DNA from: Phoronis australis
Lineage: Eukaryota; Animalia; Phoronida
Length of the DNA stretch: 64,000 nt
Reading direction: 5' to 3'
Assembly (NCBI GenBank): GCA_002633005.1
Contig: NMRA01000214.1
Span: 518,414 to 582,413 of the forward strand
This document shows positions 1-33,900 of the stretch, piece after piece. The notes below the pieces were generated by a model. That model saw nothing but the letters and a program-made list of their open reading frames with translations, had not been told where the DNA came from and made no database searches. Within the stretch, counting starts at the first letter, position 1. The number at the start of each line of letters is the position of its first letter. The translations under genes were made by a program, and so were the position numbers.

Positions 1-1114
1 ACGCACTGCAACCCAACTGATAATGAATGGACTTTACTGGTGGACGAAAACTTGTACGTGTGCTTCCCAACAATACTGATCACTATGTACGGTATGGTGA
101 CGACAGGGCACTTTTAGTTGATAAACATTGTTTTATCTGCAATTCATTACCTGTTGACTTACTGTACATTTCCTTCTTCCCGGAAAAAAGGTCACTGGAA
201 GCCTAGCTTTTGACTCCCCAACAAAAATATCGAGAACATTTATCAGGCATTCTCAGTTCCGTGACTTCGATGGCTATATAGCACAAGTACGTCTCCACTT
301 CACTGACTTCATATCCAGCGGGTATTTCGACAGATTTGTTTAGATTTTAGATGCACCAAATGTATAGTACAATTCGATAAAAAGAACATTTCAAAAATGC
401 AATCGTAAACTTTTTGTTCCTCACGTTTTTGAAAACACGGAGTGACAGATATATAAACTAAACAAAGGTCTGTTGTAGTATGGCCACGATCTGTTAGGAA
501 ACATTCGATTTTCAAAAAGAAACCTGTGGAGTACGTCTTAATTTCTGAGCACGCGCATGTGTAGAGTACCTCGGGTTGCCAATAAAAGGAACCCGCGCTA
601 TCCTGGTACTTACATGCCTCTTGCAACCTAACACCGACCTTATACAATTGTTTAATCCAGACCAGATTCGGCGTCATTATACCATTTCTCGTCCTGTGCC
701 CGACAAATTACACCGAAGTGTGCTCCAAGTGTTGTTTTAGTTTAAAAACTGGAAGTATGCCGTCTCGAGTCTTATTCGATTACCTTCACAGTTTGTGCAC
801 GCTAATGAATGCTCGAATTTTATCCGTTCCAGAGCTCAAGTTGACCCATCGGGAAACCGTATCGTCTGCTACTGACACACAGACGACTACCGTCTGCTAC
901 AGACACACATCAGACGACCCGTTGTGCTTTACGTCAGTTGTCGGATACAGGTGTTCTTCGTGTTTGTTTAAGAATTTAATATTCTCAAAATACACAGTCT
1001 CCCTGCCAATTTATGAAGATCTAGGCATGTAATCACGACGATTAAACAGACAAGGGTTATCGTCAATAGAAGTGAAATTGCACAGTTTGTCTAATATTTT
1101 ACTTAATGTGAATC

Positions 1115-1243
1115 TTATGTCAGCGCTAAATGAATGAAACTGAATCTGTCCTGTCGGGCATAGGTATTTTCAAAATGTGCGTTTGGACCGCTGGTCTCAT
1201 ACAGGATAAAGGAATTGGTAATTGCAGCCTTTGTTGTCAAGCT
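1115..1243 (-). CDS. Secreted-protein gene putative exon 3 (terminal)
   Basis: Acceptor attttacag at 1244, in frame to TAA at 1115; ATTAAA on the minus strand at 975-980. Confidence 0.5.
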   Translation of the reverse strand, partial: SLTTKAAITNSFILYETSGPNAHFENTYARQDRFSFIHLALT

Positions 1244-3057
1244 CTGTAAAATGCTTGTAGTCATCCTCAGTCTACACCCTTGGTGCAAGACAACACACGC
1301 CAACTATCTTTAACTACTCCTACGAAGGACCAATATTAGTTGAACCTGGAACGTTTTAAGATTCCGAAACTAGTGTTGGGCCGCTCGGGTTAATAAAATC
1401 ATGTTTTTGGAATTACATTTTCGCGATGTGCGTGCCCTTTTTTGTTTTGCGATTTTTCAAAGATTCTTCTGTTGTACTCTGAGCTGTGCTGTTTCTTCAA
1501 TTTTGTTGTCCAGAATACTGCGACAGTCCCCTAGCAACTCATTCAAAATATTCTTTAACTTACCACACACTGGAAGGTGTAGATGAAAATATATCGCACA
1601 GCCATGACTCGCTTGGGGTCACAACAGCGCATTGAAGGGCAGTCGACGGCGGCGAAGTTCTCCTTCCAAACGCCCGTGTTCCAAATGCGACCATGGGTTC
1701 GGATGAAGCCGGCGTTGTAGGTGTCACAACAGTCTTTGTCCGCGTAACGCCTTGTTCGCTTGAAGTGTTCCTGGTGAGAAGTCGCAAGATGCATTGTTTA
1801 TTAAGTTTATTTGTCGTTTGATTGATGGTGTGAACAACCGAAAATTATCAAGTCGAGTTTTTGATGTTGCAAAGCGCTAGGTAAAGAAAACGGCCGGTAA
1901 GTTAACAAGCCAGTAGGAAACTAGTCTAAGGTATTTCGCATACGACTGATGGGATTTCAGTTAAAGTCCAAGTTTTTACCCGAGTTTTGATGACGCAAAC
2001 AACAAGTTGGAACAAGGTGTTCCAGAAGCAATATTCACACCCGGTTTTAAAAGTGAAGTGTAAAATAAACGACACGTTAGACTAACACGTTACGTCGTTC
2101 TTATCAATTCTCAAAATACATACATGAAATTGCGAACTATGTGTCTTTACATTACTTATACAATGACATAGCGATGTCACCCTGTCTGCTGAGTACGTCA
2201 CGTCCGGTCTTAGTTAAGACGGTCAGTGGCACTTTATTGTAAACGCGAAAGTGGGTTTTTCTAGAACAGCGGAAATGTTGCAACTGAGGTAAAGTTGATG
2301 ATTTTCATATTCAGAGTTAACGACCGCTACACCTGTACGATAATGAACTTTGTGCAAATAAAACTCCAGTAGTTACGACGATCTTACCAAGACCGGGTCT
2401 TACGACCTTTGCCGGGTAAAACGGGCCCCAGGGCTGGGCTAAAGGTGCAGTTTCGTAGAGGCATAAATAGAGTTCTTAAACTTTGCCAAACTTTAATTCG
2501 TCCGGTTCCGTTCGTTGCTACTGCATGTTTTTTAAGATTCTCAAAAGAAAGCTGCACTTGATCCGCGTTTTTAAAAGGCTTGATTTAGGTCACCTACAGT
2601 TATGAAACTGGTCTTAAATTGTTCCTTAGTCGAACTGAAAGTGATTTCACGTCTTCGAAAGCATTGGAATTTCGTTCTTTATTGAGACCATGCTCATCAA
2701 AGTTCAGCTTGGTCTGAAGAAACAACTTACTGTCAGTTCTGCCCGAGCCCCATCAGCAATCACTCTTAAACTGCTTAGGAAGACAAGACCAATTTTATTA
2801 CGGTAAGTGGCCTAAATCAAAACACGGGTTTATGTCGCTTTAATCTTTGTTGTTTGGACGTCATGGCTTGATACAGATTTTTTACACCTCCTTTTCGAAT
2901 TTGAGGGCACTCTGGTTAATAATCCTATGCCAAGATTCATTTTCTACCGTAAGTGACAAGTGAGTGTCCTGTTTTCACGTCCTACCTGAGGTTCGCTTGC
3001 GTACACCGTCAACAGTAGAGTTGTCCAAATGACAAACGCAAATTGCAGCAATTCCAT
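1115..3057 (-). CDS. Uncharacterised small secreted cysteine-containing precursor protein, 3 coding exons (3057-2986, 1770-1564, 1243-1115), ~135 aa
   Basis: Exon 1 starts in a Kozak context (atcATGG), encodes MELLQFAFVIWTTLLLTVYASEPQ (signal-peptide-like) and ends CAG|GTAGGA. Exon 2 has acceptor ttctcaccag|, encodes EHFKRTRRYADKDCCDTYNAGFIRTHGRIWNTGVWKENFAAVDCPSMRCCDPKRVMAVRYIFIYTFQCV and ends |GTAAGT. Exon 3 has acceptor attttacag| and encodes SLTTKAAITNSFILYETSGPNAHFENTYARQDRFSFIHLALT*. All junctions are phase 0 and open. Exon 3 is the least certain. Confidence 0.7.
1564..1770 (-). CDS. Secreted-protein gene exon 2 (furin-type site and Cys-rich core)
   Basis: 207 nt, phase 0-0, canonical AG and GTAAGT ends, GC-richer than its flanks. 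Confidence 0.75.
2578..2823. mobile_element. MITE family A (non-autonomous DNA transposon with long imperfect TIRs)
   Basis: The 5' end ttgatttaggtcacctacagttatgaaactggtctt is the inverted complement of the 3' end aagaccaattttattacggtaagtggcctaaatcaaaac. Related copies lie at ~3550-3815, 18670-19180, 24790-25040, 34950-35030 and 40440-40495. Confidence 0.65.
2986..3057 (-). CDS. Secreted-protein gene exon 1 (signal peptide)
   Basis: 72 nt from ATG at 3057; hydrophobic core FAFVIWTTLLLTVYA; donor GTAGGA at 2985. Confidence 0.72.
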
Positions 3058-3120
3058 GATGAGCAACTTGTTCGTCTATCAACTAGCCAGCTTCTAGGAT
3101 GTTCCAGTCTCCGAACGCCA

Positions 3121-3182
3121 AAGTGAAGGGCACCGGGCTTGCACGGGGTTTTCATACAGACAGGTGATTGACGTGTGGGCGG
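3121..3182 (-). promoter_or_regulatory. Putative core promoter of the secreted-protein gene
   Basis: Minus strand: TATA-like TATGAAAA (3156-3149) lies 32 nt upstream of the A of an Inr-like TCACTT (3126-3121). An E-box CAGGTG (3161-3166), CRE-like TGACGT (3169-3174) and GC box GGGCGG (3177-3182) cluster just upstream. Confidence 0.45.
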
Positions 3183-3549
3183 GCCTCGATGTCGCGTTCC
3201 TGCGTGGTGTGAAATTTGCTGCCACCACCGGTTTAAGTATCCATAGGCAACGTTAATTAAGTTAAGAAGTAAAATGTATTAAAACAAAAGCCGCCTGATT
3301 CCCATGGTCGGACTATCAAGGTATTCTTAGTGTACAAAAAAGTGATTTTCAGAGATGTTGCTCGTTTTACGATGAAGGGTTCATGTTACTAACCAAGAAT
3401 TGTTTACTCGACCTCTTGGTCACCAGGAGTCGCCTGTGTGTACCTAATGTTAGTTATGCAACAATGAATAACAAAAGTCACCAACACGGTGAAATGTAAA
3501 CAAAGATTTGTTGAAGCGGACGTAAATGCACATTCCGTCACAAAAAATC

Positions 3550-3815
3550 AAATTTTGATACTGTTATGACATTAGGTCTCAAATTGTTCCTTTGCCAAAG
3601 AAGGTATGATTTCTGGTGTTTGTAAAAACTGGTTGTCCGTTATTGCTTGAGACAAGACTCTGCAGCTTAATGAGTTGTTACGGCGTGTCAATTTATTCAC
3701 CGAGCATGGCCTCTATATGAACTGACAGGTCTTTGCAAGATCATGGTTCACTCCTCAATTTAGTAACGGATAAGTTGAAATGAATTTTATAGTGGTAAGT
3801 GGTCTAAATTAAAAA
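3550..3815. mobile_element. MITE family A copy (diverged)
   Basis: Shares gtctcaaattgttcctt...gagcatgg...gtggtaagtggtctaaattaaaa with 2578-2823. Confidence 0.55.
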
Positions 3816-4604
3816 TAAGTTTCTTCTGTGACAGCTATGTTGCCTTGGTGAAAAGCGGTATTAAGAGAACTGCATATAAGTGTATCTCCAGGCGTGAGTG
3901 ACTGTAGTCCCTACCATGAGCTCACTGTAAGGATGGGAGTCACACCTGTAAATTCTGGTAATTAATTGCCATCCGGATTCGGGCAGAGATTAAGGAAAAG
4001 AAAAAAATACGTGAGGAGTGGGGATGGGGAGGAGGGCAGCTGGGGGGTGATGACCAGAGGTGGCGTAGAACTGCCTGCGATCGGGGATGAAAACTGGCGG
4101 TGACGGCGCCCATTTGAGTTGTCGGATTCTCCAAAGTTTTCCCGTCATTGAAGATTCGACTTACTACTGAGTGGTTTCAGGTCATCCTCGGAACCCGCAG
4201 TTAATGCGTGTTATCTTGGATTTCCTTCCCTACTCCCCCGCTACCGCCACCCAAAAGTTGTTGCTCAGTATTTCATCCAAGTTTCTTGTTGGCTCATTTT
4301 AATTTAAAAAAGAAATGTCAACAGTGAAACCAGTTTCGCCAGATCATTATAATTGCTCTGCGCATGTCGTCAATTTTCGTCATCTGACCCGAATTGTAAA
4401 GGTCCTGCCTCTATGAACTTTTTGATCGCTGTATTGTTTCAGTTCATTACTTAACTTCCTGACGGCCAACACAGCATTTCCAGATCGAATTCAAAGCTGG
4501 AAGCGTCAACCCGCCGACACAGCGCATTCGATCTCAAGTGTCACTTTGGGCACCATCGCGCCACCTGTCATTCGGATTACCGTAACATCAAACTAGTGTC
4601 GAGA

Positions 4605-5490
4605 GTGCTTGAATTTAAGACCAGTCTACTGCCGGTATATATATTTTTTTTTGAAAATATTAATAGTTATTTCCTCCCCACTTAAGGCCAAACATCAAAA
4701 CTGTGAAACAGAGGAACTCCTACAAATTGGTGTCAAAATTTGTTTCTACCGTCCCTTTAAACACCACACGGATTGCAAAACATGTGATGCTAAATTAAAA
4801 GTTAAAATATCGTGAAAGTGGCCGTGATTTCCTTTTCGTCTCGTTTTCAACAGTGTGTATTATTTCCTGCCCGTGTTTTCTGAAGTCATTTTATTTAAAT
4901 CGTGGGTGTTGAATACGCACGCAATAGCAGTATTAAATGCGTGAGATGCTACTCCTGAGGCTATGATCGTTGAACATACTAGGCTAAATTATACCAGACC
5001 CGGTCAATGGCGCATGCAGTCAGTGTTTCTTAGAGTCAGTGCGAANGTGCTTGAATTTAAGACCAGTCTACTGCCGGTATATATATATATTTTTTTTGAA
5101 AATATTAATAGTTATTTCCTCCCCACTTAAGGCCAAACATAAAAACTGTGAAACAGAGGAACTCCTACAAATTGGTGTCAAAATTTGTTTCTACCGTCCC
5201 TTTAAACACCACACGGATTGCAAAACATGTGATGCTAAATTAAAAGTTAAGATATCGTGAAAGTGGCCGTGATTTCCTTTTCGTCTCGTTTTCAACAGTG
5301 TGTATTATTTCCTGCCCGTGTTTTCTGAAGTCATTTTATTTAAATCGTGGGTGTTGAATACGCACGCAATAGCAGTATTAAATGCGTGAGATGCTACTCC
5401 TGAGGCTATGATCGTTGAACATACTAGGCTAAATTATACCAGACCCGGTCAATGGCGCATGCAGTCAGTGTTTCTTAGAGTCAGTGCGAA
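4605..5490. repeat. ~440-bp near-identical tandem duplication across a single N (probable haplotype or contig-overlap artefact)
   Basis: 4605-5045 and 5047-5490 differ by only a few substitutions and a TA/poly-T length change; N at 5046. Confidence 0.85.
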
Positions 5491-6315: not shown

Positions 6316-9300
6316 ACCTAAATCCCGCTACCAACAATAACATCGAAACCATCGGCGACTCAAGAAACCGCTGTCCAAAACCAAAAATTCATGTTACGCA
6401 TTGCCTGTGATACTTGTCGGCTCATTCGGCTATAATTTAGTTAGATAATGGTGGCAATGCTTTAAATCCCAAAGCGCTTCGCTTACGATGAACTCAATAT
6501 GTTCATATCGATTCTAAAGTTAACCAGGAATGAGATAAAGATTCATCCACATAGGTATTCAATATTGCGAAAAGCTTTAAAATGTAAAAGTAAGGTCCTA
6601 GATAGCTTTAACGTATTTACTCATGAAAAATATCCACTCTATTAAATTCACCACACCAGTTAGCGAACGATCCCCACATTTGGCGAAGTGGTCAAAAAGG
6701 TTCGCTTCAGAGAAACGGAAAGTCCGAGAAAACGAGACTAAAGTCCACAGAAATTCGGTGCGAATGTACAATTCATAGGTCTGAACGTCGTACCCCGCCT
6801 ATTTAGTCCCCGTTTTTTTCAGTAAAAGGTCCACATACTGCAAAAATTCGAGCCCCCCTATATTTTAGGCTGGGTGCGCGCATGGTTAGTCACCCTTCTG
6901 TTCTGTAAGTTTCGCTTGTATGCTTCATTTTTTCTGTAACTCCGCGAGCTCCCTTCAAGGATCGACAGACGACCGAAAGACGCGAAACATTTTGTCCACT
7001 AGCCGATTTCTCCTTTTGTTCATCATCTAGTCCACGTTTTCCAGTCATTTTCGGCATTTAACAAAAACACATCAAAGAGACTATCCAGCGTAATCACATT
7101 AGCCTCATTATTAAAAATAAAGAAAACAATTGGTTGCTTTACAAAGACAATATCCTGTAATTTATTATCAATCATTCCTTTGGCACATTAGTTATACACA
7201 TAACTAGTATTACAACTACATTGAATATTGCCCCCACAGAGACTTAGCTGTAGAACAAATTCCTCCTAAAAAGCAGTAAGGACAAAAAGCCACACATAGT
7301 CTTGCGTAATAGTTAAGTATAACCTGGCCTCATCAAAGACTTATGCAGGTGCACAATACTAAACCGATATTTTGAAGTCAAAAGCAGAAAGAAATCTTCT
7401 GTCATTGTTGTAGACACCAGTCAACAGATGATGATGTTTGAATAGAGAGGTGCTTATTCTAAATTGCAATTCTTTGGATGTGGGCAATTTATAAACTGGG
7501 CTAGTATGTTTTACTCAAATTGTGTTTGAAATCAATAACTAAGCAGGAACATACACAGCAACAAACTCTAGAAGAGTTTCTGTGTGTGATTAATTATTTC
7601 CATATGCGCCATCAACAGACCTTGTTTTATGGCATTCAATCCGCCTGAATATCATTACTAGTTAGTAAATGAAATACAGAAAGATAGACTTTACAGAACT
7701 GTAGTCCTTTAAGGTAATGTAGGACCCTAGAAAAATTCCAAATTTGGAAACTTTGTAACGTAACATGTCAGAGATGGGTAATCAATTCTTACAAAAATTT
7801 AAGATACTATGCTTTATCCAATGTTCTCAAAAATGCTACTTGAAATTGTTTTTAAATGATCTCCTTTTTATGAGGGGCTATGAAAATTGGCCTGTTATTA
7901 TTTTCATGAAAACACCCAGAAAAGTGCATAAAACGAAAAGAAAATGATAATTTAGAAAAATGCAACAACATTTTCGAGATTTCATCTTGAACATTACATT
8001 TAACAAAATTTAGTGGTCCTCTTCTTGATACTGTGGTTTTGCTATCAATGTACCTTCCTTTTTGCTACGTTTTGCTAAAAAATACGTGGTCACATGAACC
8101 TATTAATGGCAGGTTAATAAAAAGACAAACATTAAATCCTATAGGTTTTCTACCGTCTGTAAAACATTTGGTTTTACTGGCTTAGATATTTGGCAGAATA
8201 CACATTCTTGTTGATAGGGTCGGACAAAACCTTATACTATCAACATTGAACACGTTGCTCCTTAGGGACTATACCTAACTTCGAAACTCAACCGGGCTGA
8301 CAGAAAATACTCAAATCAGTCTTCACTGGCACTTGTCCACCATTTGTTCAGATTTCAAAACTAAGATTATTTCAAACTGCAAAATTGCATCTTACATGTC
8401 ACCTATGAAACAAATTAGGCACTGCTACTAAGTTTGGAGGCTATAAGTTTGAATGACAAATCTCAGACATTTGTATACACGATCTTTTTTGAGATAAGTA
8501 AACCTGTCTGACAGTTTTTAAAATAAATAATAATATTCACAATGCGAATCAAATGCTTCTGTACGCCTAAACCTTACACAACAGAAAGCATTGGATGTTA
8601 AAATCAATTATGGGACAATTAGAATACACCAAACAATATAATATTAAATATTCAATATGTTATACATGTATATATCACAATATCTGCATCCTACCTCTAC
8701 CACTATAGGTCTCTGAATTACTATTTTTCCATATACAAATATAAGGCAAAAGCATTTGTTCAAATATGTTTATACTCACTACTGCGAGTTTCAAGCAAAA
8801 TAGAGCTACATGTCTACAAAGCCAAAGTAAAATTTTGCGGCAAAGTATTCTTTGAATAGCGCAGCACGACCATGATAAAATAAGACTTACGTAGTAAAAC
8901 CTAACATTGAATAAAACAGAGAGTTTAACCAACGAGTGCATAGGGGGTACTCTGGCTTAGAGTGGATACAACGATGCACCACTAAAAGGGTTGCGTTTTG
9001 TGGGAAAATGCATTTCTATCCAAATGACATTTTACTTGGGCATTCCGTTTGCCATAGAAATGCACACCAGGATGAAAATTCCCAGACTAACCAGTCTGTA
9101 CGGCTCTCTTGAAAACCCGAGTCAAGTATCCCACCTTGTCTTATACACTCTAATACCCAATAAATAACTATGTTTCAGTCTGTAAATTTTTCGCGGTTAC
9201 AGAAAAAAGCTTCAAAATTATGCTTTGTTGATTTCACATTTCTTAGTATTTTTTCGAAATAAACTACAATTTTCGTGGGATTTTATCTGGCTATCATTAC

Positions 9301-9822
9301 TAAATATCAGCCCATTTAGACCAGGATAAATGGGTGTATGGCCCAGTACTACAGACAGGATCACTTAACCACAACAACACTGCCACAAGGTACTGTCAAT
9401 TAACTGACAATGGACTAAATCACTTGATGTAATTTAATTACTCTACGAAATTTTATACCATGTTGGAAAGAAGCATGTGAAAATGGACCATGTCGCTGAG
9501 AGAGAAAGCCAGATTCAATAAGGGGAGATAATCACTTTAGGTGACCTATTTTCACCAAATTTTGACTTCGTAGTTGTGAGGTTTCAGTTGAATTGGGACA
9601 GCTTGTTACCATAAAAGTATACTATGTTTTTATATTACTTACGCTTTGTATGAAGCTGATTACATTTGCCTCCCATTGATACAACAGGCGCCATCTGCAC
9701 AACGCATACAACATCAGGCACATTTATAAAGGGAAACGCCAAGCTTCGATGTATGCATGCGACAAGATTATCGTTTACACGAGAACTAGGGGGAACTTCA
9801 GCCGATGACATGCAGACAAGTA

Positions 9823-9967
9823 TCAGTTCTTGTCAGCCAGCACTTCTCGGAGGTGTTTGTAGAAGTCGATGATGTTGGAGGGTAAAGCCAGCTCCACCAC
9901 TGTCCGGGGAAGCATACCGCCGAGTTCAGCGTTGGTCAAGTGAACGACTTTGGTCTTGTTGGGCTCT
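9823..9967 (-). CDS. STARD5: STARD5-like exon 6 (terminal coding exon)
   Basis: Acceptor ctccccttctag; EPNKTKVVHLTNAELGGMLPRTVV...DKN then TGA at 9825-9823. Confidence 0.92.
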
Positions 9968-12900
9968 CTAGAAGGGGAGGTAAGAAAGAGGGCGTGAGTG
10001 ATTGGTAGGCATGTCTACATGATCACTAACTAAGCAGGAATTTTTATGGATAATCGCATTAGGAACTCTGGCCATGTGGTGAACACATCCACTACCACAA
10101 GAAACTGTAGGAATACTGCATTTATCCACCTTCACTCTTATCAGGCTTCTATTGTGAGTCAGCATGCGTGAATAATTGGCTGATAAGCCACCTATGGAAC
10201 TACTTTTGGCTGAATGGATGACCAGGCCATAAAATGATAATTAGCCAAGACCAGTTACTAATGCAACAAAGAATAATGTCATAGCATCACCTAGCTTTGG
10301 TGGAAAGCTGTATAGTGTATTGGCTCTAATAAACGCTTTGAAAAATTCATTTCAAAGAGAGGGGACGATCATTGTAGCCTATGGCAGTTGAAACCCGGTT
10401 TCCCAAACGGGTAAAATCGGACGCTATTATTCATCAAATTTACGCTCTGTGACGTATTTGTAGCCTATAAAGTCTTTCTAAAAAATTGTGGTGCATTGCT
10501 ATCAACTACTGTTGTTAAATTACGATAATTTTTCAAAAAATTGTGCTCATCACAGGGCGAAAACTTACCGACTGATGCGTCGCTGAATCGCGATCGTGAA
10601 TAGGAAAACTTGGAACTCTTGAATAAAAATATAGTTTCGACTCAACAAATTACTTGAAATCTTCCTCATGTTTTACAATTTTTAAAGTTCATGTGGAGTC
10701 CAGATTAATTGCGATTAAGTCCAAATCTGTGCTACATCATACCCCACAACACGAGTAAAATCTCTGGATGAACACATGTGTTGTTGTCACGTGACGTTTG
10801 TTTTGAAGTTCGTCTGGGTATGAGAGTGAGTGAGCGTGCGTGTGCGGGTCATCGACGACAGACTTTTTTGTTACAAAAGGCGGAGAATTATGCAAGAAAA
10901 TGGCGTTTACTATATTGTTTTTCACTTAAACGGCTGCAACGTGCAAGGTGAGTGCTGGTTAACTCACAGATTTTGTGTGCACAGGTCGACAGTCGTTAGC
11001 TCTACCGTGGAGTATTATAGTCCAAGGCTCGATCTACATGTTGGGGACAAGGTGAACTACCCGGGCTGTGAAATTTCTGGGTCTAACGGAGACACTGACG
11101 CAGTGGTCAGCCAGCTCGCTGTATCAAGACTATAGTCAAAATCCAAATTCGTTTTATCGTATCCCTGTCAATAATATCGGCATGCTAAAGTTTCTTAATT
11201 TTGGTTCTTCAGGAACATAACAATCACGTGTTTTGTACATACGCGCACGCCGCAGATCACATCTCGGAAATTGCCGATTTGACGGATGACAATGAATGAG
11301 CACAATAAAATTAAACAACGTCGTTTTACAGCTTGTAAGATTCATAATAAACGTATTTTGAATATTGCAATGCATGTGTTCTAAAATCTAAATAACTTGG
11401 GTCCTATATTTTTGTATTCGTGCGCGCCGAATGAAAGTAATCGTGAGCCTCACGATTACTTTCATTCGAGTGTTGCTGTGTTGCAAAATCTCTTATCCTG
11501 GGCCGATTTGAAAAATTCAAAGTTGTACTCATATTTGTTTTTGCTCCTCTTCAAATATTACAGTAAAAACTACGTAAAACTCTCTCCATAAAAAGTACAG
11601 TCAGCTAGCTAGATTGTAATCAGCTGATCATATCCGCATGAACGAAGCCAATTATCCTCGATCGTGACTCGATGAATAGAGCAGCTTGGTGGCATCCCTT
11701 TGATCGTGAGCCGAGCGCAACTCAGCCAAGGTGGATAAATACGGTCTAGTTCAATTTTCCAAACCCCACCGTTTACCTTGACCATTGGGGTTAGGACCAA
11801 TCTTATTTAGTGGGATTGTTTATAGCATGGCTATTCAGAATGCATAGGGGGTAATAAAGCTACTATCTTCTCAGCCATTGACCATAAACTTTTTGTTAAG
11901 CTGTGTTTACTTACACAGGCAAACTGAGACAGTTGTATGACTAAGAGCAGGATTCACATAGAACTGTTCTCATGGACCTTGCATATCTAGTCAATTTTAA
12001 AAGACACATTGTATGTGAACGACACCCATGACAAGTGTAAGTCACCATGCTGACTAGTTACCCCTTCCATGCCCAAAATGCATGTTGAGATTTTCATGTG
12101 AAAGAGTTCTTTACTACGACTGAGACAAAACTGCAGAATAAAGCATTTTAGGTATAGCACACAAAAATCTCCGTTTAATCATTACATCTAATTATATCAT
12201 AAGATACAGACTAAATCAACCACTCACCCAGGCACGGAATAACAAACAATTCCACATGGGTAGTTTTTCCCTCTTACATACTCGGATACAGCTGGTACTG
12301 AGGGGTGATCAATACTTTTTGCTGAAAAATTAGGAAATAAAAACATAAAGGATCAAGTTGTGTGAAATCTGCAAATGGGACATGCTAACAGACAACTGGA
12401 GGGGCTCAGTACTGACACATTAGGCACCCAACTGTGAGGTCACAGGACAATATCTGGTCTTTTCTAACTTGTCCATGAAATCAATGCGTAGTCTTAAAAA
12501 GCTAGAACAAGGAGCAAGTCAAAAGGCATAAAATGGTCTGACGATATTAAAAGACAGTCACTACATTTTAATTGCCATGTGCATGCATATTGCTACAAAG
12601 CCTAGTAGACAGAAATTCAAAAGTCTGCACTTTACAAACAGAAGAGAAATGACTCGCACACGATGAGCATACGATATAGTTTTCAACTGAAAATAAACTC
12701 ATCAAACTCTAAATTTGACCAAATTTTGATGCGCAAAACTTGTGCTAAATATCCACAGTTCAATTCAGACTAGATCTTGACAAAGTCTCTCAAACTGTCG
12801 AAACTGTCATAACTTAGCAAGTCAAAAAAAGTAAAATAATGAAGTGCAATAACATCGCATTGAATTCTGACTAAATTTTCATAAATTTTACAATTTATTG

Positions 12901-15900
12901 CAACAACAAACTGCCAAATAATTCAGACAAGACGTTCGTCAAAGTTTGACAGAGTTCTGTCGAAGTCTGTCTAGTTTAATGTGAAAACTAATGCACTGTA
13001 ATAAGAAAAATTCTCCATACTACTCTATAACATTTTGAGATCATAAAAGCAAAAGCATCTTTGACCTCTGACCCGAACTGAAAATTCCGGTCAAGTTGAA
13101 ACGGAAAGCAATTTCTTTCTTTCAGGGACATTTGAGAGGTTGCACATTTTTGAGCGAATAGTTTGGATATCCCACTGCATAACAGTGGCAATTCAATGGC
13201 ATCAGGCAGTTGCAAGGAATTTAAATACAAAACCTAAGAAATATCCCAGGGCATTAAGTTGTTACACGGTTGAAGAATGCTTGCAGTTCCTATACTTGTT
13301 GACGTGTAGTAAATGTCTTCCAAAGCCACCTAAGATGTCGGCATGACATTCTTGTAAGATTTTGATCATCAAGGATTTTCAAAACACTGCTACAAAGTTT
13401 TATCGGGCCTAAATTGTCGCACTTAAAAATTTATTAAACAACACTGATCCTTGACAACGAAGGTAGCGCATTCCCTTAAACTGTAATTTTTGTATTACTG
13501 GTCGTAGATACATCTGTCACCCTTTCTTGTCTCTTGTCAATATTTGCCAAGTCAAAGAACAGTGACTGGCAACCAAATATCCTAGTATTTGAAGGTGATG
13601 GACTTAAGCTAACTTAATAGCTTTCCCAATTCCCATGTTGTTACTACAGAATTAAAGGACAATTTTTACTGACAAATTAAAAAGTACCATTTTCACCCGG
13701 TAAATCACTGGACAACAAAGTTTATTTCAACTTACCAATGGTTGCAATAAAGCCATCTCCTTTCACTCTATAACTCAAGTCCACAAAGTCCCGGCCAGAA
13801 ATGATGCCTTTGTGTGCACTATGAGTGCAGGTGCGGACTACAGATAGGTTCTGAAATTAACAGTGGACACGACATAAAATCGCAGATGGTTACTTGTATA
13901 TTATCTTTATATCTTGACGGGTGAGGGGGGTGTTCAAAAAATTATGAGTCGGAATCTAAAAAAGCTCTCATGCAGAAGTCAACTCTCCATGACAGAAGTT
14001 TGCCAGTGTTCCAGAAGCATCGGCCTTTTGTAGGTGTTAATGCCATAGGCATGACCCTTTTGTAGAGATTCTGAATTTCTAACTCTAGAAACCTCAAACA
14101 TAACACTGGTTTTCAAAAACGAGTTCATCTTTTACAAACAAAGTTTTAAAAAATAAAAATCATCAGAGACACTTCTGTAGATTGGCAGATGAAAAAAGAA
14201 CCTTTTGTTGAGTTCTCATGCCCAGAACTCCTCAGGTGAGATGTGTCTGCACTGTCATTTAAACTACAGCAAAATTGCACCTGGGAAGGGTTGTAATGAC
14301 TAAAGAAATTAGAAATTCCATGTGGGCTTTATCACAAAAATTAACTACAAATAACATCAAATTAAAAATAAGATGTGTATGAAATAAACGCACCAAATTC
14401 AGAAAAAAAAATAATGCAAAAATAAACAGTTTTCGTATTCAAAGGCTTTAAGTTGTGAATTCAGACACAGTCTTTGAAAAAAATGTAGAAAGATCTTTAA
14501 GGACCCGACGGAATTTGAGCATGAAGCATAATTGACACTTTCTTGGCTTTTATGAGAAAAAATGACAAAACAGAGCTTGTCCTAGACACTGTGTCCTCAA
14601 TAAACAAGATTGTAAAATAAGTAATATCCATAAAACAAGATTTATAGATCTTCCTGCGCGGATTTTAAGACTATGATAAAACAAAAATATTTGAGTTTAT
14701 CATATTTTAGCAACATAAAAAGTAAAAGGGCACAAGGCGTTCATGGTCCCTCTGGACCCTCCTCTGGGCCAGCACCAATTGAATATCTTGGATGGAGATT
14801 CCATCTCAAGTTTAATGTCTATTTTACAATCTGGTAAGTGCTGCGGCCTGTTGGAGGAATTTGCTTGACATGGGCTGCCATCTATTGTGCAAAGCCTGGT
14901 CTTAGCTACCTTGCACATCATGCAAGAACACAGGAAATGTAGCAGTATGGTTAAAACTTCAGACAAAGTTGATAGCTTACATTGCCACTGTTTCATTTTT
15001 CAACGTTTTAACAGGCTGCAGCTACTAGTGTTACCTTATATTGCAAGGTGATGGGTGTATCACGGCCATACACAATTTCATCACTCTAACATTTTCATTG
15101 AAGGAACTGTTTTTCATTTCACACGTGTTAAATTTCACAACATAATTATACTTTTCTGTCATCCTTTGTTCAAAAAACAAAGTTTTTTTATACTGTAATC
15201 AGAAATTCTTTAATAAATGCAGAAAAAAATTAAAAATCCAACAAATCGGGCAACTCCATCGAATCATTGATCTCAATCAACAGTTAAGAGTGGATGGGTA
15301 CTTACATCGCTAATTGTCTCCACATTTATAAGTGATTTGACAGCTTTGTCCCACTGACTTCTAGGCCCCGCAGGTACTGGGTCAGCGTATTCAAACACCT
15401 TCTCTGGGGCACCATCGACCATCCCCTCCGCTTTGTACCTGACCAAAATCAATCAGTCAACGAATCACTCAACCAACCAATCAAGCAACCAATAAAAACA
15501 ATCCTTGTGAGGAAATTTCAGTGGTATCTGATTTTAGTATGCACAAAAAGAATTGCCAAAAATGTCATTTTTTTCTAATTTTCGAAGGCTTGATTACTCA
15601 ATTGCGGCAAAAGGTGGAGATTTTACCGAAATGGCAACATTTTGATGAACCTTATTTTTGTTGAGAAATTTGAAAACGTTCACTCACCTAACAAATGATA
15701 CATGAACAGTTATCTTGATGTGAGATGTGATGAAAGACCGCTCACATACTAACAGACTTTCGATGTAGAACCCAAGCAAATGTCTTTTGGAAGCAACGAC
15801 AATGGCATGAATTATAAGTTGCATTTTCAAATTACACCCCACTCACCCTGATTACCTGAAGACAGTGCATTTTCAAATTACACCCCACTCACCCTGATCA

Positions 15901-18900
15901 CCTGAAGACAGTGCATTTAACCTTACTCTTTGTGTGTCCAATGCAATAAGCCTAACCTGGTGGAAATAATTACTGGCCCTCTACTTTATACCAAAGGGGC
16001 AGTTGAAATCCCCTTATCAATAGGGTAAGTTGTTGCCAGAATTCCTTTGATGTCCTAAGAGACCGCAGGGTAAAGCACCTCAGCTAGCCTAGTCTTGGTA
16101 TAGAAAGGTTTGTAAACACTATTCCAGCATGGCAATTTTAATGTACTCTGGGGTGCAACTCATCAGGAGTCACGGGGCCAGACATCCCACCAATAATTGT
16201 TGACTGCAGGCAAAACATTTGTGAAAATGGAAGGAAAACAGCAAAAGAATGTCCATGGACATCACAATGGATACACCCCATGAATATAGAGGGCACCACA
16301 TGTGGTAAATCACAGCCACACTTACTTGTAAGTTGTAAGCAAACACTAGTGTGAATTATCATAAAACATTCGGCCAGGTTATCTGATCTCCACATGTAAC
16401 CACACACGGTATTTTCAGGCAAACAATGAATGGCACAATTTTGTAATATTCATGAACATCAAAAGCAATGCCAAGCACGGTCATTTCTGACTTTGATAAC
16501 TTCTTAGTCTTCTATGTCAAACTCTTTTTTAGTAAACTTGCAAAATGTCATTAGTTACAAAGACCTGTAGAAAACAATTTTTTGCAACATTTACCTCATC
16601 ATTCATTCTGCAAATGAAGTTTGGGAAAAAAACAGAATCTAGAAAGTCACGAAGACATGGCACTAATTGACAACGTGTAAGTTACGCCCCGTCTTGTAAT
16701 TACACTAGGTTGTAAGATTTAATCCAAGACCTAAATGATGAACAGAAATTAACTTGCCCTTAGAAGTTAAAATGTCGCAACGCAACGTTGTTCACAGATA
16801 CGACCGCATTCGCTTCACAGTTCATGTTGTAGTGCACGTGACTTGCAATTGTATTTAGCCACAGCAATCCAAAAACTGCAGCTTTTAGGCAATATTAGAT
16901 TTTACTTCATGTTGACAGTACTCACATGTGTCCGTCAAAATCGTTTGAAGGTCTTGACCAAACCGTGACATCTTTCTGAAAATGGAATAATTGTATTCAG
17001 AGAATGATTAAAGAGACAAGCAGCTAAATTTTTATGGGATATGCCCCTGAAATGGATAATATGGTATGAATTTTGAACTTAAATGGTCAAAAGTTGTGGC
17101 TTATTTATTTACTGAACTCAGTGAACAATCAGAGTGGATTGGTATTCTGATATTGTATAAAAAGTCTCGACATTATGTAATTTTAGTAGACCAAACACGG
17201 AATATCAATTTAAAAGAAGACCCTCCAGCGCAGTAATTCAGTTGGTGAAAATAATACCCAAGATATCCCATAAAGTGCCCATGGGCATTTTTTGCATAAC
17301 AAAAAGCGACTGGTGATGTTAAGAAAAGTTTGATATTATTTAACACTCTTAACATTTGCAGTTAAAAGGATACCAGACCCAGTTTTGGCCCATGAACAGC
17401 TACTAAAAACGACGTTCCCATCCATTTCTCTGAAACAAAATAGTGTTCTGTAACCCTCGACTACCCTCAAAAGAGTGGAGCAAAATTTGTAAACTCTTTA
17501 CAGAGTCTCTCAACAGGCAAGGGTGACCTACGCTTTAGGGGAGTTACACAACAACAGTAGGGCAGACCATCCACCAAGAACCATAATGTCCAATTTGTGA
17601 CTCAGACAGTATGAATTTTACTTGATTTCTGCTTTAATCACCCATGTGGGACACCAGTGATGCATTAGCAGGTGGCAGAACCCAGGCCTTCATTGAAATG
17701 ACCAAAACCAGATTTAGTATCCCTAAAGCATAAACAGTAAAAGCTGTAATTTTAAAACAACCCCAAGACGTTCTTTCATTTTTGTCTAGTTCAGGTACCA
17801 AGGGTCTGGTAACCCTCGTCATGAGATTCTGAAATAAAAGTTACAGCTACCGGGTATGCGGTTTGCTTCATTTGGCTAGACAGATATCGTGAATTTTCTT
17901 CAGCTTGCGACCTCAGCAAGGCAAAAAGCCAATTGATTTTGTATTTCAAAGTGTTCCAAATACATTTCTTCATCAAGGACCGATACTAATAAGCAGAATA
18001 TGTAAGCATGGATATAACCAAAGGCAACTTGCTGTTTTGATGGCAAAGCAAAGCAATGGATTTTTGTCTTTGCGGTGTTAATTTGCATTGATTAACAATT
18101 TTCTATCTCATAAAACATATGTGTTCTGTCACGATCTTCTACACTCCAGGGACTGAAACCTGACATTAGTTAATTAGCAAATATAGAGTAACAGTGTATT
18201 GAAAGACAACATGTTCAATCAGATGGTATGAAAACTGGCTGCTCAGGAAACTGAAACACACCCCCCCCCCACCCCCCAGCTCCAAACACATTGTTCAGGA
18301 GGGGGGTGTGTCCCGATGATCCTATACCCTGGGCCTAACACATATTGCGGTGCCAAGTAAAACCGGGCTACAGAAACTCTGGAGAATAATTTGCTGTTGC
18401 TTTTGCGAGAATGGCATGAGGGAATACTGTCAAGAATGAGGATACAAAAGTTTCACAGAGCTAAGTATAGATACCAACCGCAGTTAGCTTTTGAAGTCAA
18501 AATGTTTCAACTACCTCAGAGGCCCAATAATTAGACAGTTAAACAAGATTCATTAGCTGATGGTTAAAACATTACAGGTAATTTGATTGCCAATGCGATG
18601 CCGACTAACAGCTGGTGACGGTTGTCGGTATATTTTTATTGTTAAAGTGCACCACAAAAATTAACTTATGATTCAGACCACTTATCTTTATGAAATCTGA
18701 GTCTCAAATTGTTCCTTATTCTTAATAGATGCAATTTCTGGGTCTGGAAAGACCTGACAAGCAGACTTTTAACGGCACGCCATTTCAATTTGCGAGCATG
18801 GTCTCAAGGAACACTGAGGGGACAGTGTGGCTCAGTGGTGGTTTGACCTCCGCACTCACGTTTGAGAGACCCCGGGTTCGAATCTTGGCTTTACTGGCTG

Positions 18901-21900
18901 ACAATTGAGCATTGCACAAAGGTGTCTCCTACTCCTCTGAGCTCGGTCTCAGTAGTGAATGTGTGCATGGGAGTGAATGTGTGCATGGGATTGAATGAGA
19001 ACCTGGATATAATGTGAGAGCGAGTTCTGGGGGCGTGCTCATATCTTTTTTTTAAAGGAACAAAGACCTGCCCATTATATCTTTTTTAAAGGAACAAAGA
19101 CCTGCCCATTCTTAGCAAGACCACAAATCACTTCTCAACTGAGTAAGGATTTTACAGTGGTAAGTGGTCAGAATAAAAAGCTAATTTCTTCAACGGAACA
19201 TAGAAACATGAATTTATAGCCAATATAATATTCATCTATGTTGCCTAGGGATGGTGCATGACTGGTGTTGCGGCTAAACCATGATATCCTTGCCTGTGAC
19301 TACTGAGGCTGTGGACTAGATACTCTCTGTGAGCTCAATTTGCAGAATGGAAAATCAGGCTTTTTACATTGCAGACAATAAGGAATATGGGCTTGCCAAA
19401 TTTACCTGGTGAGAAGTTATAAGTTCCAGCACAGCCACATTCCAATCAATTTTATAGGTATTGCTATTTCAAAGCTGTGGTCTCACTCAAAGATTCTTCA
19501 AAAACATAATTCGATCAGATGCCAAACCGTGGTATTTGTAAAAGATACTCTCAAACCCCAAGAAGCAACTAATTTTCACAAGAGTTGTAGATCTTCCACC
19601 ATGGTTGCGTGGTTGCATAATAGGACACAGTGTACATTGAAACCATTGAAGAACAGTGACCACATGATTACTGTGTTGCTTGTTCATGTATTTATAGCTG
19701 TGCCATCCCTGTCTAGACTCTTCTACTCCAACTAGAGTAAACAGCTGGAGGAGTCCAGGCACTAATTAAACAACTCATGCATAAATTAGATGCTAGGGTT
19801 TACACTGGGGACATATTTAAAAACTGTGGTGAATGTCGAAACTTAAAAACGGACATATTCATACAAAAGAGCAGGTGCAGCTATAAACCAGCCTTTTAGC
19901 TGTCACAAATTTTTTGATTAATAATGTTTGCCACAGTAATTGATCTTAAGTTTGTGTTTTTCAAATTAGGCATGATTTCTGGGCTAAGGTCTACAAGATG
20001 GTTTGTCACGGCGGTTCATTTCAGGTGTCGAGCACATCTCAAGAAATAACAAACTGCCAATTTTTTCCAGTTCCCACCTTGAAGGAAAAAGTTTAGATCA
20101 GTTTTGTATTTGTTGTCTGAATTAAAACCTACTGTAGAAGTTCTTTGATTAAGTGTGTGGGGGTTTAAGCTGGTTTTAATAACGGCAAAGGAAAGTGAGG
20201 TCTGTCAGGGCTAATATGCAATGATAATGTTACTGGAGATGATAATCATAAAAAGTCCAGTAGCCTAGAATTCACTTTAAACTTTTTACTTGGCAAAACA
20301 TCAACACCTGTGTTTGCCATGAACTTTTTCACAGATAGTTGTTGTTAAGTTGATCGCATATAACACCGTGACGAACTACAAGTTCATCATGGTATTACCG
20401 TCGGTAATACCCTCCCGAGGACGGCCAGCTGAGGACGGCCGCTAGATGAGACCCTGATTACCTATCATAGATGATACGCCAACCATTATGAAATTCAGTG
20501 CTACTTCACAGAGGTAAAAGCAACCATAAAAAGCAAATATTTGTCATGAAATGTTTTGAAAGGAGAAGCAGACTCATCATCAACCATTCTCCTGTTTTTG
20601 AATTGAGCACAGTAAAGTTCATTGTGGTAACTAACGTGGTACTGGTAAATCTTCAACAGTGTCATCGTGGTCACAGTTGTCATGAAAATGTAAATAAAAT
20701 GTTTGCACCGCTATGGAGGAAGGTTCTAGATTAAAACGTTATGTTTTGAATATACTTGCACTGATTACACTGCTGTTGAATTACAGCATGTGTCATACAT
20801 AGATAACCAAGAACAGTGCAGACAACTCAAAAACGATAACAGACCATATGTCAACTGCGGTTACATGCTCCAGGGGGAGACAATTAAGGACACAAAGAGG
20901 TTGACAATGNTTCACAAGCGAAGGAAAGTGAGGTCTGTCAGGGCAAATATGCATGACAATGATAATGTTACTGGAGATGATAATGATAAAAATTCCAGTA
21001 GCCTAGAATTCATTTTAAACTTTTTACTTGGCAAAACATCAACACCTGTGTTTGCTAAGAACTTTTTCACAGATAGTTGTTGTTGATCGCACATAACACT
21101 GTGATGAACAACAAGTTCATCATGGTATTACCGATCATAGATGATACGGCAACAATTATGAAATTCAGTGCTACTTCACAGAGCTAAAAGCAACCATAAA
21201 AAGCAAATATTTGTCATGAAATGTTTTGAAAGGAGAAGCAGACTCATCATCAACCATTCTCCTGTTTTTGAATTGAGCACAGTAAAGTTCATTGTGGTAA
21301 CTAACGTGGTACTGGTAAATCTTCAACAGTGTCATCGTGGTCACAGTTGTCATGAAAATGTAAATAAAATGTTTGCACCGCTATGGAGGAAGGTTCTAGA
21401 TTAAAACGTTATGTTTTGAATATACTTGCACTGATTACACTGCTGTTGAATTACAGCATGTGTCATACATAGATAACCAAGAACAGTGCAGACAACTCAA
21501 AAACGATAACAGACCATATGTCAACTGCGGTTACATGCTCCAGGGGGAGACAATTAAGGACACAAAGAGGTTGACAATGGGCTTGGATAACAACATACAG
21601 TGCTTGAACAAAGGAAGGAGTCTAACCTCCTGTCACAATCTATTCATGCTAATTATCCCTAGCATGCAGGGTGTGAAAACAATTCCATGGTGCACCACTA
21701 AATTCCAGGTAGGCAATCCTCTATTAACCACAGAGTCAGACCAGCAGACACTACTGTTGTTACATGGTAATTTTACCCCCACTTAGCACACTATGACCAA
21801 CAAGAGGGTAATTCTGTTTTCTTAAAATTTCCCCACAAAAGTAAATGTTGAGAACGATCACAAACGCGTTATGCAGACAGTGTAGATGCCACAAAACAAC

Positions 21901-30900: not shown

Positions 30901-33900
30901 GCAGGAAGTTCATGATCATGTGGGTGCCTGTGAGCTAACTGTCTTGCGTGACTAATATTTTAAGGGCAGGACCATTCTCTGACTAGTGCCACCTAGTGAA
31001 TTTTGAGCAAACCATTATACCGGGTTTCAGTCACAGAAGTTTTGTAGCATAGTGCCAGACAAAAAATTGTTTTTGAAATTTAAAGCGTTGGGTGATCGTA
31101 AACAGAATGACTTTTGCAAACGGGTAGACTTTGAAAACCTAGGAACTTGAACTTACATCCGGTTTTGTAATGTGCGAACTTAGAGTTTAAGAAAGGTAAA
31201 ATGTCTATTAGAAAAATGTTGAATTGTATCTTGGTACTCCTACAGAAGCTCCCCAGAAGCTCATGTGCAGGTCAACACCACAGCCAATCCCATCATGGGT
31301 AATTAATTCTCTACATGGTGGAGTGATGTTCCTGAGCTCAAGTGCACACAGTGTCTGTATTTGTTTAAGTAACTCTAGCAGGAACAAAAAACTAATTAGA
31401 TTAATATCTGTATCTGGTGAACCCAACCAAGGAATTAGTGGGTTACTTATCTGCCATAGACATCCATGTTGTCTATGGGTGGGATGCTCACAATTCTTTT
31501 TAGAAGGATTTCCGTTTATTTTCAGTTTGATTCCTGTCTGTCAAATTAATTTTTTCTCATAACACTAAGTAGTACACATGCCACTGGTACCAATTTTAAC
31601 AATTTTAGCACGAAAAAAAAAATTTTCAACAGTGCCATGAAAATGAGAGTGCCAACATTTTCCGGTGACAGTTACTGTACTCGTTGGCTGCAATGTTCCC
31701 TGCAGTAGAAAATTATTAAATATAATAAGATTCCAACTTAAGTTGATGAACGATCCTGAGTTGTTTATTTGTTCAGCAACTCTCCCAAATATACAAATAA
31801 GTCCGAAACTTTGCAAGACACCTAACAGTGAAAATTAGAAATAAGAATCGAAAAAGTCCTTGGTGATATTGGAATCAGTTGTCCCTGCATAGTGACTTGA
31901 ATGCAATTTAGTATTTTCCTCAAGAAGTTCCAGTGAGGCAATTGTGTCAGCTGATTTCAATACAGACATGTCAAAATACACAGGTTTGTCAGACCAACCT
32001 AGGGCATGTTGCTTGAAAAGTGACTCAAGACGAAAAAGTTTTCCCAAGTTATTCTGAGCGCTTGACAATCTAGAAAAAATTCATAGAAATTTGTCTCATT
32101 ACTAGAAGTAATGAGATTTAATTATTTTTCGGAAATAGTTGTGTCTTAAAGTGGAACTTACAGGCTAATTCCTTATCTCTGTGATTACTTGGCCAAATTA
32201 GTTAGAAAAACAACATGTAGCAACCACGTGAATATGAAGTAGGTTAAAAATTGCCAAATGTTTTTAAGAACGAGTTTTATTGCAAAGGTCACCCTACCGT
32301 ATTTGCAGAATTTTTTGCTTTCACATTTGTCAGTGAATGCAATGCCACATTGTTTAGCATAAATTATGTTAAAATAGCGTTGTGGGTTAGTTCCTGCTAT
32401 ACATTACCATAAGTTAGGAGCACGTTTCATGAAGCACACCCTGAATGTGAGGGACATCACAAAATGTCAACACAGTTCATAAATACATGATAAACTACAC
32501 GTGCTCTTATATGGGCGAATGTTAGGAACCGAGGTTATTGTGCCAATTTAAAATATTTTTGAGGTCCTATAGAGGTCGCTGAAGTCATTTCTTCAAACTA
32601 TTAATTTTGCGTACTTCTTAACAAGCGTTAGTCCCTAGCCAGGTTGGTTAATAGTACAGTATTATTATCAGAAGTTCTCATGCCACGTTTCAGCCAATCA
32701 GAAGATAGAACTATCTGTTGATATGTAATTATAAGCCTTATAATCAAACGACCACTAATACTTATTTTCTCTGATTTCTTGGTCTCACGCAGCACTAGAA
32801 TGTTTTTTACTTGCTCTGATAGGTTGCCATCATCTGCTTACTTTGTTTACATGATCAGGAGTTTATGGTTTCTGCAGAGTTTGATTGGTCAATTCAAGAA
32901 TCTATGGACCTGCCACACTTGTACACCTTGAATGACAAGTGGTATTACATGGTTAGTCAGTCATGAACACCTCATGACAAAGTCACTGCACTGAGTTTTA
33001 TCCAGAGAACAGAATTGTCAGTGATTGTGTAACAGTACTCAACTTTACAATAATCCAGGAAACAGCAATGTAAGTGTCATATTAAATATGAAAGAATAAG
33101 GTGATTGCTACTATTTCAACCTGAGTGAACCACTGCACTAAATGGAGAAATACCAGTTACAACAAAAATCATTGTAAATTCATGTTATCTAAATATTTAT
33201 TTTTAACAGAGAACTGAAGAATAGCTCTGTAAGCAATAAATATGTTCGAAATGCACTGAAAACACTTAGAGCCAATTGACATTTTATATAACCTAATGTA
33301 ACACCTTGTGTGTTTCACTGTCAAGTGACCTTGGTTTTCTCTTTCACTAAAGATAATGTTTTCCAGTGCAAATATTCAAGAGCCTCTTGAAATTGCAACG
33401 ATTTCCTCCAGTTCAAAAAACAACATTTTGGGAAAACACAAAACAGTATGTCAATTTCATTAATCAGTTTTGTTTGTGCATGTATTGTGCATGTTTTCAA
33501 TCTCCTCTGCCACGATGATTATTTTCGTGTAAACAAAGCTAATGATACAGTGCAAGCCAAAAGTATTCAGACAAAATGACCCAGTGTGATAATGACTGGA
33601 CAGAGCCCAGATTCATCATCACAGTAGTCTCCCTTGTGACTGACAACAAAGAGGCCAGTAACAGAAAAGTTGGTAGTGTAATTAGAATTTTGCTACCATG
33701 GTAATGTTTACTGTTAACAAATTCAAGTGTCATGACAAGCAAACAGTATAGGAGCAGTACTTTGTCTTGTGCTGTAGAAATTTTGTCGAATGATTTGGCC
33801 TAAGTTAAACAAAAATCAAAACGTTACCTTTGGTTGCAACAATGGCCGATGAAGCAAAAGATTGTAGCATGAATCGAGTTGACTCCTGTAATCTATTCAC

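Follow-up and report, generated by a model that had tools for sequence, protein, structure and literature searches.

Locus and gene structure

The window analysed here is a 64,000-nucleotide stretch of the genome of the phoronid Phoronis australis (assembly GCA_002633005.1, contig NMRA01000214.1, positions 518,414 to 582,413 of the forward strand), which has a G+C content of about 38%, is rich in introns and lacks long open reading frames. At its left end, on the minus strand, lies a spliced, transcribed gene whose exon 2 splice sites, reading frame and at least seven cysteines are established, and which very probably encodes a real secreted cysteine-rich peptide. The closest match found for its cysteine spacing is the core of the prokineticin/astakine peptides, overlooked in a first-pass annotation made from the sequence letters alone. 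That annotation had proposed a spliced gene for a small, likely secreted and furin-cut cysteine-rich protein; this core idea holds, and no database relative was found, whereas the third exon and the product of 135 amino acids that went with it do not hold.

RNA was mapped over positions 400–3800 of the window in four runs (X1 to X4: three raw-read runs and one contig set, chosen by species label), and the two read mappings, of the gene and of its neighbour, which encodes a START domain, used likeness cut-offs of 90 and 95. The features of the gene are listed here in window coordinates.

3121–3184, minus strand: core-promoter-like motifs, by motif match only (GC box 3184, cyclic AMP response element-like 3175, E-box 3166, TATA-like TATGAAA 3156, initiator-like TCACTT 3126)
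3058–3107, minus strand: transcribed 5' untranslated region (X3 depth 27 in the bin 3022–3135 and 0 beyond; 3058–3125 without ATG)
2986–3057, minus strand: coding part of exon 1 (ATG at 3057, 24 codons; predicted signal peptide, then the first residues of the pro-piece)
1771–2985, minus strand: intron 1 (1215 bases, phase 0, GT..AG)
1564–1770, minus strand: exon 2 (69 codons, phase 0; remainder of the pro-piece, furin-type site, and six mature-chain cysteines)
1747–1761, minus strand: KRTRR, predicted furin/convertase site from the sequence (RTRR at 1758–1747; the mature chain would start with Tyr at 1746)
1731, 1728, 1641, 1626, 1623 and 1569, minus strand: cysteine codons of exon 2, from the sequence
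1–1563, minus strand: intron 2, likely running past the left end of the window (32 reads depart at 1564 into letters without a match in the window)
1115–1243, minus strand: third exon of the first-pass annotation, rejected as intronic (depth 0, joint unlisted, weak acceptor, no Pfam match)

The promoter motifs are present where the first-pass annotation had put them, with the initiator-like TCACTT (3126) 30 bases from the TATA-like word (3156), and nine RNA molecules end at 3107, 19 bases further downstream than the first base of the initiator-like motif. Exon 1, with its ATG and 24 hydrophobic codons, and the phase-0 exon 2 have the frames assigned to them, and intron 1, which contains short dispersed repeats near 2600–2631 and 2783–2823, is removed in 33 X3 reads with 23 different start places, all skipping exactly 2985 to 1771. 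Sense depth in X3 is 27 over the exon 1 bin and 25–32 over exon 2, and the GT donor after 1564 is used by 32 X3 reads. Of the two junctions that had been proposed, 2986/1770 is thus borne out by the reads, whereas 1564/1243 is not listed at all.

X3 reads on the plus strand at 742–1197 and 1426–2109 (depth at most 11 at 856–969 and 1–6 elsewhere) are a possible antisense transcript; these oppositely oriented reads fall in introns 2 and 1 and across exon 2.

The third exon

The 32 X3 reads that leave exon 2 at the 1564 donor continue into one identical sequence, in full agreement with one another. The 30-letter read consensus past the donor, translated by hand in frame, gives L-R-K-R-V-I-Q-P-C-V, and a 19-letter piece of it is absent from the window even with three mismatches allowed, so that the true exon 3 most likely lies to the left of base 1. 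The direction of the loose read ends was verified by eye at the repeat near 2600, where the loose letters are those of the second copy of that repeat. The variants of exon 2 occur in about 35–58% of reads, yet the loose ends show no disagreement, so both alleles apparently splice to the unseen exon 3. The visible pattern of the mature chain, from exon 2 and the ten read-derived codons, is CC-x28-C-x4-CC-x17-C-x9-C, with at least seven cysteines.

The third exon placed at 1243–1115 by the first-pass annotation is not borne out: its bins have a sense depth of zero in all four runs, and its acceptor at 1243 has the weakest pyrimidine tract of the six scored (0.45 against 0.55–0.95). Because the 32 reads enter other letters in the same frame and bring in a further cysteine, the product of 135 amino acids and six cysteines is refuted. 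The argument that a terminal CxC is absent falls with it, as the true C-terminus lies beyond the visible sequence, of which the last residues are Cys-Val.

Coding evidence

Exon 2 has four listed variants. In the cysteine frame each of them alters a third codon position and leaves the residue unchanged, whereas in the second open frame of the exon, which is ruled out, each would be non-synonymous (probability by chance 0.002; 0.021 with base-change classes matched). Few as these sites are, they settle the frame and suggest purifying selection. The motifs described earlier for exon 2, namely KRTRR, CC-x28-C-x4-CC-x17-C and DPKR, are all encoded there. Among the 124 open YAG..GTR segments of 150–260 bases in the window, at least six cysteines occur together with R-x-[KR]-R in two, both of them this exon, by criteria that were set after exon 2 had been seen. 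The short internal echo DCCDT/RCCDP is within chance, its score being reached in 442 of 5000 shuffles and in 773 of 5000 when the shuffling preserves the CC pairs, and an internal duplication was dropped as a candidate.

Sample-restricted expression

The START-domain gene lies upstream on the minus strand (6960–17150) and is spliced in X1, X2 and X3 at 9967/12228, 12321/13736, 13850/15306 and 15436/16924; over these four junctions together, 31 reads were counted in X1, 54 in X2 and 186 in X3. When intron 1 of the cysteine-rich gene is scaled to this neighbour, 5.5 reads are expected in X1 and 9.6 in X2, and none is listed (Poisson P 0.004 and 0.00007); X4 likewise has none listed, against the 33 of X3. 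Because X1 and X2 splice the START neighbour but show no listed junction of the gene, its expression is sample-restricted, to one of three RNA runs (X3).

The last coding exon of the START gene matches PF01852 (expect value, E, 0.0037), and continuous reads suggest a 3' untranslated region that is about 2.9 kb long and extends to about 6960. Within one of its introns, 9883–11830 has reads on both strands with many fixed differences in X1 to X3, and is likely an expressed repeat family.

Predicted processing

In exon 1 the first 14 nine-residue hydropathy windows average 1.1–2.3, and the predicted signal peptide is likely cut after Ala20. Twelve residues then separate the predicted cut from the furin-type site on the spliced exons; R-X-[K/R]-R is the consensus of furin and related proprotein convertases. 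The first 20 or so residues would direct the chain into the endoplasmic reticulum, and furin or a related convertase would remove the 12-residue pro-piece ending in RTRR. The mature chain is predicted to begin Tyr-Ala-Asp, which differs from the AVITG of the vertebrate AVIT prokineticins. Its exon 2 part has eight Lys/Arg, six Asp/Glu and 43% hydrophobic residues, and the ten read-derived residues give three further basic ones. Since a KR pair followed by Val is likely to stay uncut by convertases, the internal KR pairs, each of which precedes Val, are likely left intact.

Database and literature searches

Searches of the Protein Data Bank sequences with exon 2, of the ESM Atlas with the whole exon and with its mature part, and of a word-indexed protein set among longer and near lengths did not find a relative. 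A set of 1.84 billion representative sequences gave a single match (E 0.0007) to a repetitive 299-residue frame with four matching stretches and without the signal/furin layout, which was rejected. Five loci taken from 101 candidates of a metagenome scan were all dismissed as seeded chance matches: three are short frames (41–58 residues), one is a GC-rich frame that matches the basic stretch only, and the fifth is a long frame that resembles a DNA methyltransferase by eye. A tblastn match at 9925–9854 of the window is an off-frame reading of an exon of the START gene. Three peptide words were unmatched in the literature searched, a search that did not extend to bioRxiv supplements, figures or subscription papers, and specific peptide words were absent from the PMC8557429 supplement (unrelated short matches only) and from three supplement files of PMC13121700.

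A control exon from a neighbouring gene of the window likewise found no relative, and Phoronida have no RefSeq-annotated genome according to the available part of PMC13121700; the blank searches are therefore weak evidence of novelty and do not show that this is an orphan gene. The earlier description of the gene as lineage-specific is unsupported for the same reason.

Comparison with prokineticins and astakines

The comparison set consisted of 17 prokineticin-related precursors from part 24 of the 387 parts of the PMC8557429 supplement, in which spacings were counted by eye. Scaffold comparisons with prokineticins and TGF-beta alike are comparisons of cysteine spacing by eye, and the profile and fold searches were made with exon 2 without its read-derived extension. 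Nine residues separate the two cysteines after CC in all 17 precursors; C-x4-CC is found in 15 of 16, preceded by Asp or Glu in 15 of 16, and the loop after CC has 8–21 residues (PMC8557429, part 24). The chain has this core, C-x4-CC-x(8-21)-C-x9-C, with spacings of 4, 17 and 9 and a preceding Asp, and one Phoronopsis entry of the set is exactly C-x4-CC-x17-C-x9-C. A Terebratalia entry has the Y-T-x-Q-C-x-L of the chain, and two nemertean entries have its Q-P-C; these short matches lie around the two cysteines spaced nine residues apart. Like the prokineticin/astakine-related precursors of phoronids, brachiopods and nemerteans in this part of the supplement, the chain has no AVITGA, and it has a predicted signal peptide; unlike them, it has a furin-type site ahead of an N-terminal arm.

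As far as the available parts of the sources go, the prokineticin/colipase fold has ten conserved cysteines including a downstream C-x-C (PMC8877203, PMC8398477), and vertebrate AVIT prokineticins begin with AVITG (PMC8877203). Invertebrate astakine-type peptides, as described in the accessible parts of PMC8398477 and PMC8557429, stimulate the formation of blood cells, do not carry AVITGA and, in protostomes, have no receptor of the PKR type; they are the closest functional model for the chain.

On such a scaffold, the segment D-C-x4-CC-x17-C-x9-C would form the opening half of a colipase-type domain. Of the two cysteines in the N-terminal CC, one could stand in, by way of the 28-residue loop, for the missing first cysteine of the family, and the other could pair with an unseen cysteine or join two chains. 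C-x-C and the final cysteines would come from the unseen remainder of exon 3, and the peptide might signal to neighbouring cells via a receptor distinct from the vertebrate prokineticin receptors PKR1/2, as is supposed for astakines. The proposal of a local signalling peptide that has a prokineticin/astakine-type (colipase-fold) core and an additional N-terminal arm, scaffold and signalling role taken together, is tentative, somewhat short of probable, and is drawn from the sequence.

Several observations weigh against it. A cysteine six places ahead of the core (C-x5-C) is present in 13 of 13 family members of the set in which this position is visible, whereas the chain has Asn there; the extra 30-residue arm beginning with CC has no counterpart in any of the 17 precursors; and the last four C-terminal cysteines of the family fall beyond the visible sequence of the chain. 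No homologue was found in the sets searched, and exon 2 matched no Pfam family at E up to 10, although it holds only part of the domain. Single-sequence AlphaFold2 models have predicted local distance difference test (pLDDT) scores of 49 and 47 with conflicting secondary structure, so that the fold is unusable, and a wide fold search with the first of them reached a best Z of 3.2, to unrelated chains. In random placements of seven cysteines in 71 residues, a null for position only, the prokineticin pattern arises in 0.03–0.05%, as a pattern chosen post hoc, and the spacing of TGF-beta-type knots, likewise post hoc, is about as rare (0.004–0.1%). Because the patterns were picked after the fact from several families, these rarities show only that each scaffold merits testing, and spacing by itself does not choose between them.

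Alternative explanations

The main functional rival, by analogy with big defensins, which share the signal–pro-piece–furin layout, is a secreted peptide for defence, antimicrobial or deterrent, that has its own scaffold and owes its family-like spacings to chance. This is unlikely, if the strongest of the alternatives. Defence peptides often vary in protein sequence, whereas all four variants found here are synonymous; no paralogue was found in the window, where the top other tblastn match was the off-frame reading of the START exon. The expression in one of three runs and the failure to find a relative are consistent with a defence role, and so is the basic-leaning mature part with its 43% hydrophobic residues, although the net charge (eight Lys/Arg against six Asp/Glu) is modest. 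In the available part of PMC7203481, big defensins and other invertebrate antimicrobial peptides are laid out as signal peptide, short pro-piece and furin-type site; big defensins are there reported from phoronids and are given a signal peptide, a prodomain and a dibasic furin-like site. Their cysteine layout differs, however, as a cysteine-free hydrophobic N-terminal domain is followed by a C-terminal beta-defensin domain with six cysteines (PMC7203481, same part), and the chain has CC at mature positions 6–7 and cysteines throughout.

A miniature ligand of the TGF-beta-type cystine knot, which has lost the heel between knot cysteines 3 and 4 and as a monomer would bind a type II receptor and block signalling instead of triggering it, is doubtful, a little more so than a defence role. 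The predicted mature chain would begin directly after RxRR and five residues ahead of CC, with a furin site before a cysteine domain as in that family. The spacing CC-x28-C fits loop 1 of TGF-beta (27), GDF8 (26) and BMP7 (28). Between the second CC and the seventh cysteine lie 27 residues, inside the range of 22–32 for loop 3, which has 30–31 residues in TGF-beta, GDF8 and BMP7 (PMC3224965). At the corresponding place, the bursicon alpha of phoronids carries CC-x-P-K and 28 residues (PMC8557429, available part), and the last visible Cys-Val could open a terminal CxC. Both fingers may also resemble TGF-beta/GDNF residue by residue. Yet the ring segment is C-x4-C without Gly instead of C-x-G-x-C, while all ten eight-ring proteins tabulated have a five-residue ring segment with a central Gly (PMC3224965). 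Loop 2, the heel, which has 25–31 residues in TGF-beta-type ligands and at least 18 in ten of the ten tabulated proteins, would be of zero residues (PMC3224965). The pro-piece has 12 residues only, against the long prodomain of the family; two cysteines are without family partners; compared with TGF-beta, GDF8, BMP7 and bursicon alpha/GPA2, the chain has an extra cysteine inside the second finger; and there is no Pfam match. In the portion of the manuscript available (bioRxiv 10.64898/2026.03.23.713733), an engineered heel-less TGF-beta2 folds, is monomeric and inhibits, but the engineered monomer retains a flexible loop. A natural ligand without heel or prodomain, its two fingers directly joined, secreted as a monomer that occupies type II receptors and blocks BMP/TGF-beta signalling, would resemble this mmTGF-beta; such a ligand is improbable, and is possible only if Cys is encoded by the next, unseen codon. 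The prokineticin-type core is ranked above the growth-factor knot, from the sequence, because one moved cysteine suffices for it and the knot requires the loss of ring motif, heel and prodomain.

Other cystine scaffolds are less close. The knottin order C-C-CC-C-C fits the chain, but a first loop of 28 residues far exceeds the usual knottin length. Knottins (inhibitor cystine knots, ICK) pair C1–C4, C2–C5 and C3–C6, with C3–C6 passing through the ring (PMC3224965 and the available part of PMC6891507). The last domain of prohormone-3, knottin-like and with phoronid examples (PMC8557429), shares with the chain the order D-C..CC..C..C and a similar I-x-x-C-[IV] end; its spacing is C-x5-C-x6-CC-x13-C-x8-C, compared with x28, x4, x17 and x9 in the chain, and prohormone-3 has further cysteine domains upstream. 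Phoronid PTTH/trunk (PMC8557429, available part) has a cleavage site before its cysteine domain and C-x4-C, as in the chain, whereas the PTTH sequences in that part start with C-x-C, have six residues between knot cysteines 3 and 4 and show no sequence likeness by eye.

That the product is an unrelated orphan secreted protein, either structural (cross-linking cuticle, tube or mucus) or the start of a longer multidomain protein, is also improbable. All searches were blank, exon 3 and any later exons may extend the protein well beyond its visible start, and the odd number of cysteines so far allows links from chain to chain. Structural secretions are usually very highly expressed, however, whereas expression here is moderate, at a depth of about 30 from 1.6 billion bases, and a pro-piece of 12 residues ending in a furin-type site is seen more typically in activated ligands or effectors.

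An open frame arisen by chance in a spliced transcript that is non-coding or non-functional would accord with the lack of a homologue found and of peptide evidence, but is very improbable given four synonymous variants out of four, a frame open across two splice junctions, and a signal-like start and furin-type site in the correct order. The model of three exons inside the window, despite an acceptor AG at 1243 and a frame that stays open until the stop at 1115, is refuted as the main form by the absence of sense reads and of a listed joint in all four runs and by the 32 reads that go elsewhere from the same donor.

Other features of the window

Elsewhere in the window, exon-like frames of a further gene were found on the plus strand at 47603–47854 and 54915–55070, the second with a weak Mlf1IP match (E 0.0008, below the cut-off); no relative of these frames was found, and we take them, by appearance, to be HAX1-like. 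At 31568–32080 on the minus strand, open frames of 81 and 89 codons lie side by side and resemble exons of a membrane receptor gene; no convincing Pfam match was found for them. Tandem duplicates of 450 bases, 98–99% identical, at 4595–5490 and 20457–21579 lie beside single Ns at 5046 and 20910 and are likely assembly artefacts of contig joining. Long inverted repeats at 38431–38644 and 46734–46800 (214 and 67 bases; 85–88% identity) are likely miniature inverted-repeat transposable elements.

Implications

If neither the prokineticin-type nor the growth-factor scaffold holds, the gene would add one more unplaced cysteine-rich secreted peptide of a marine invertebrate, real but of modest general interest. 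If the growth-factor knot were true, it would be a natural minimal antagonist of the TGF-beta type, which would surprise specialists. The peptide is most likely a variant of the prokineticin/astakine scaffold, and it is filed in no family, the defining features failing for each. For the prokineticin/astakine peptides of protostomes, no receptor of the vertebrate type is known in the available parts of PMC8557429 and PMC8398477. If the prokineticin/astakine assignment is true, an N-terminal arm released by a convertase would suggest activation switched by cleavage, and would provide a new ligand with which such a receptor may be found.

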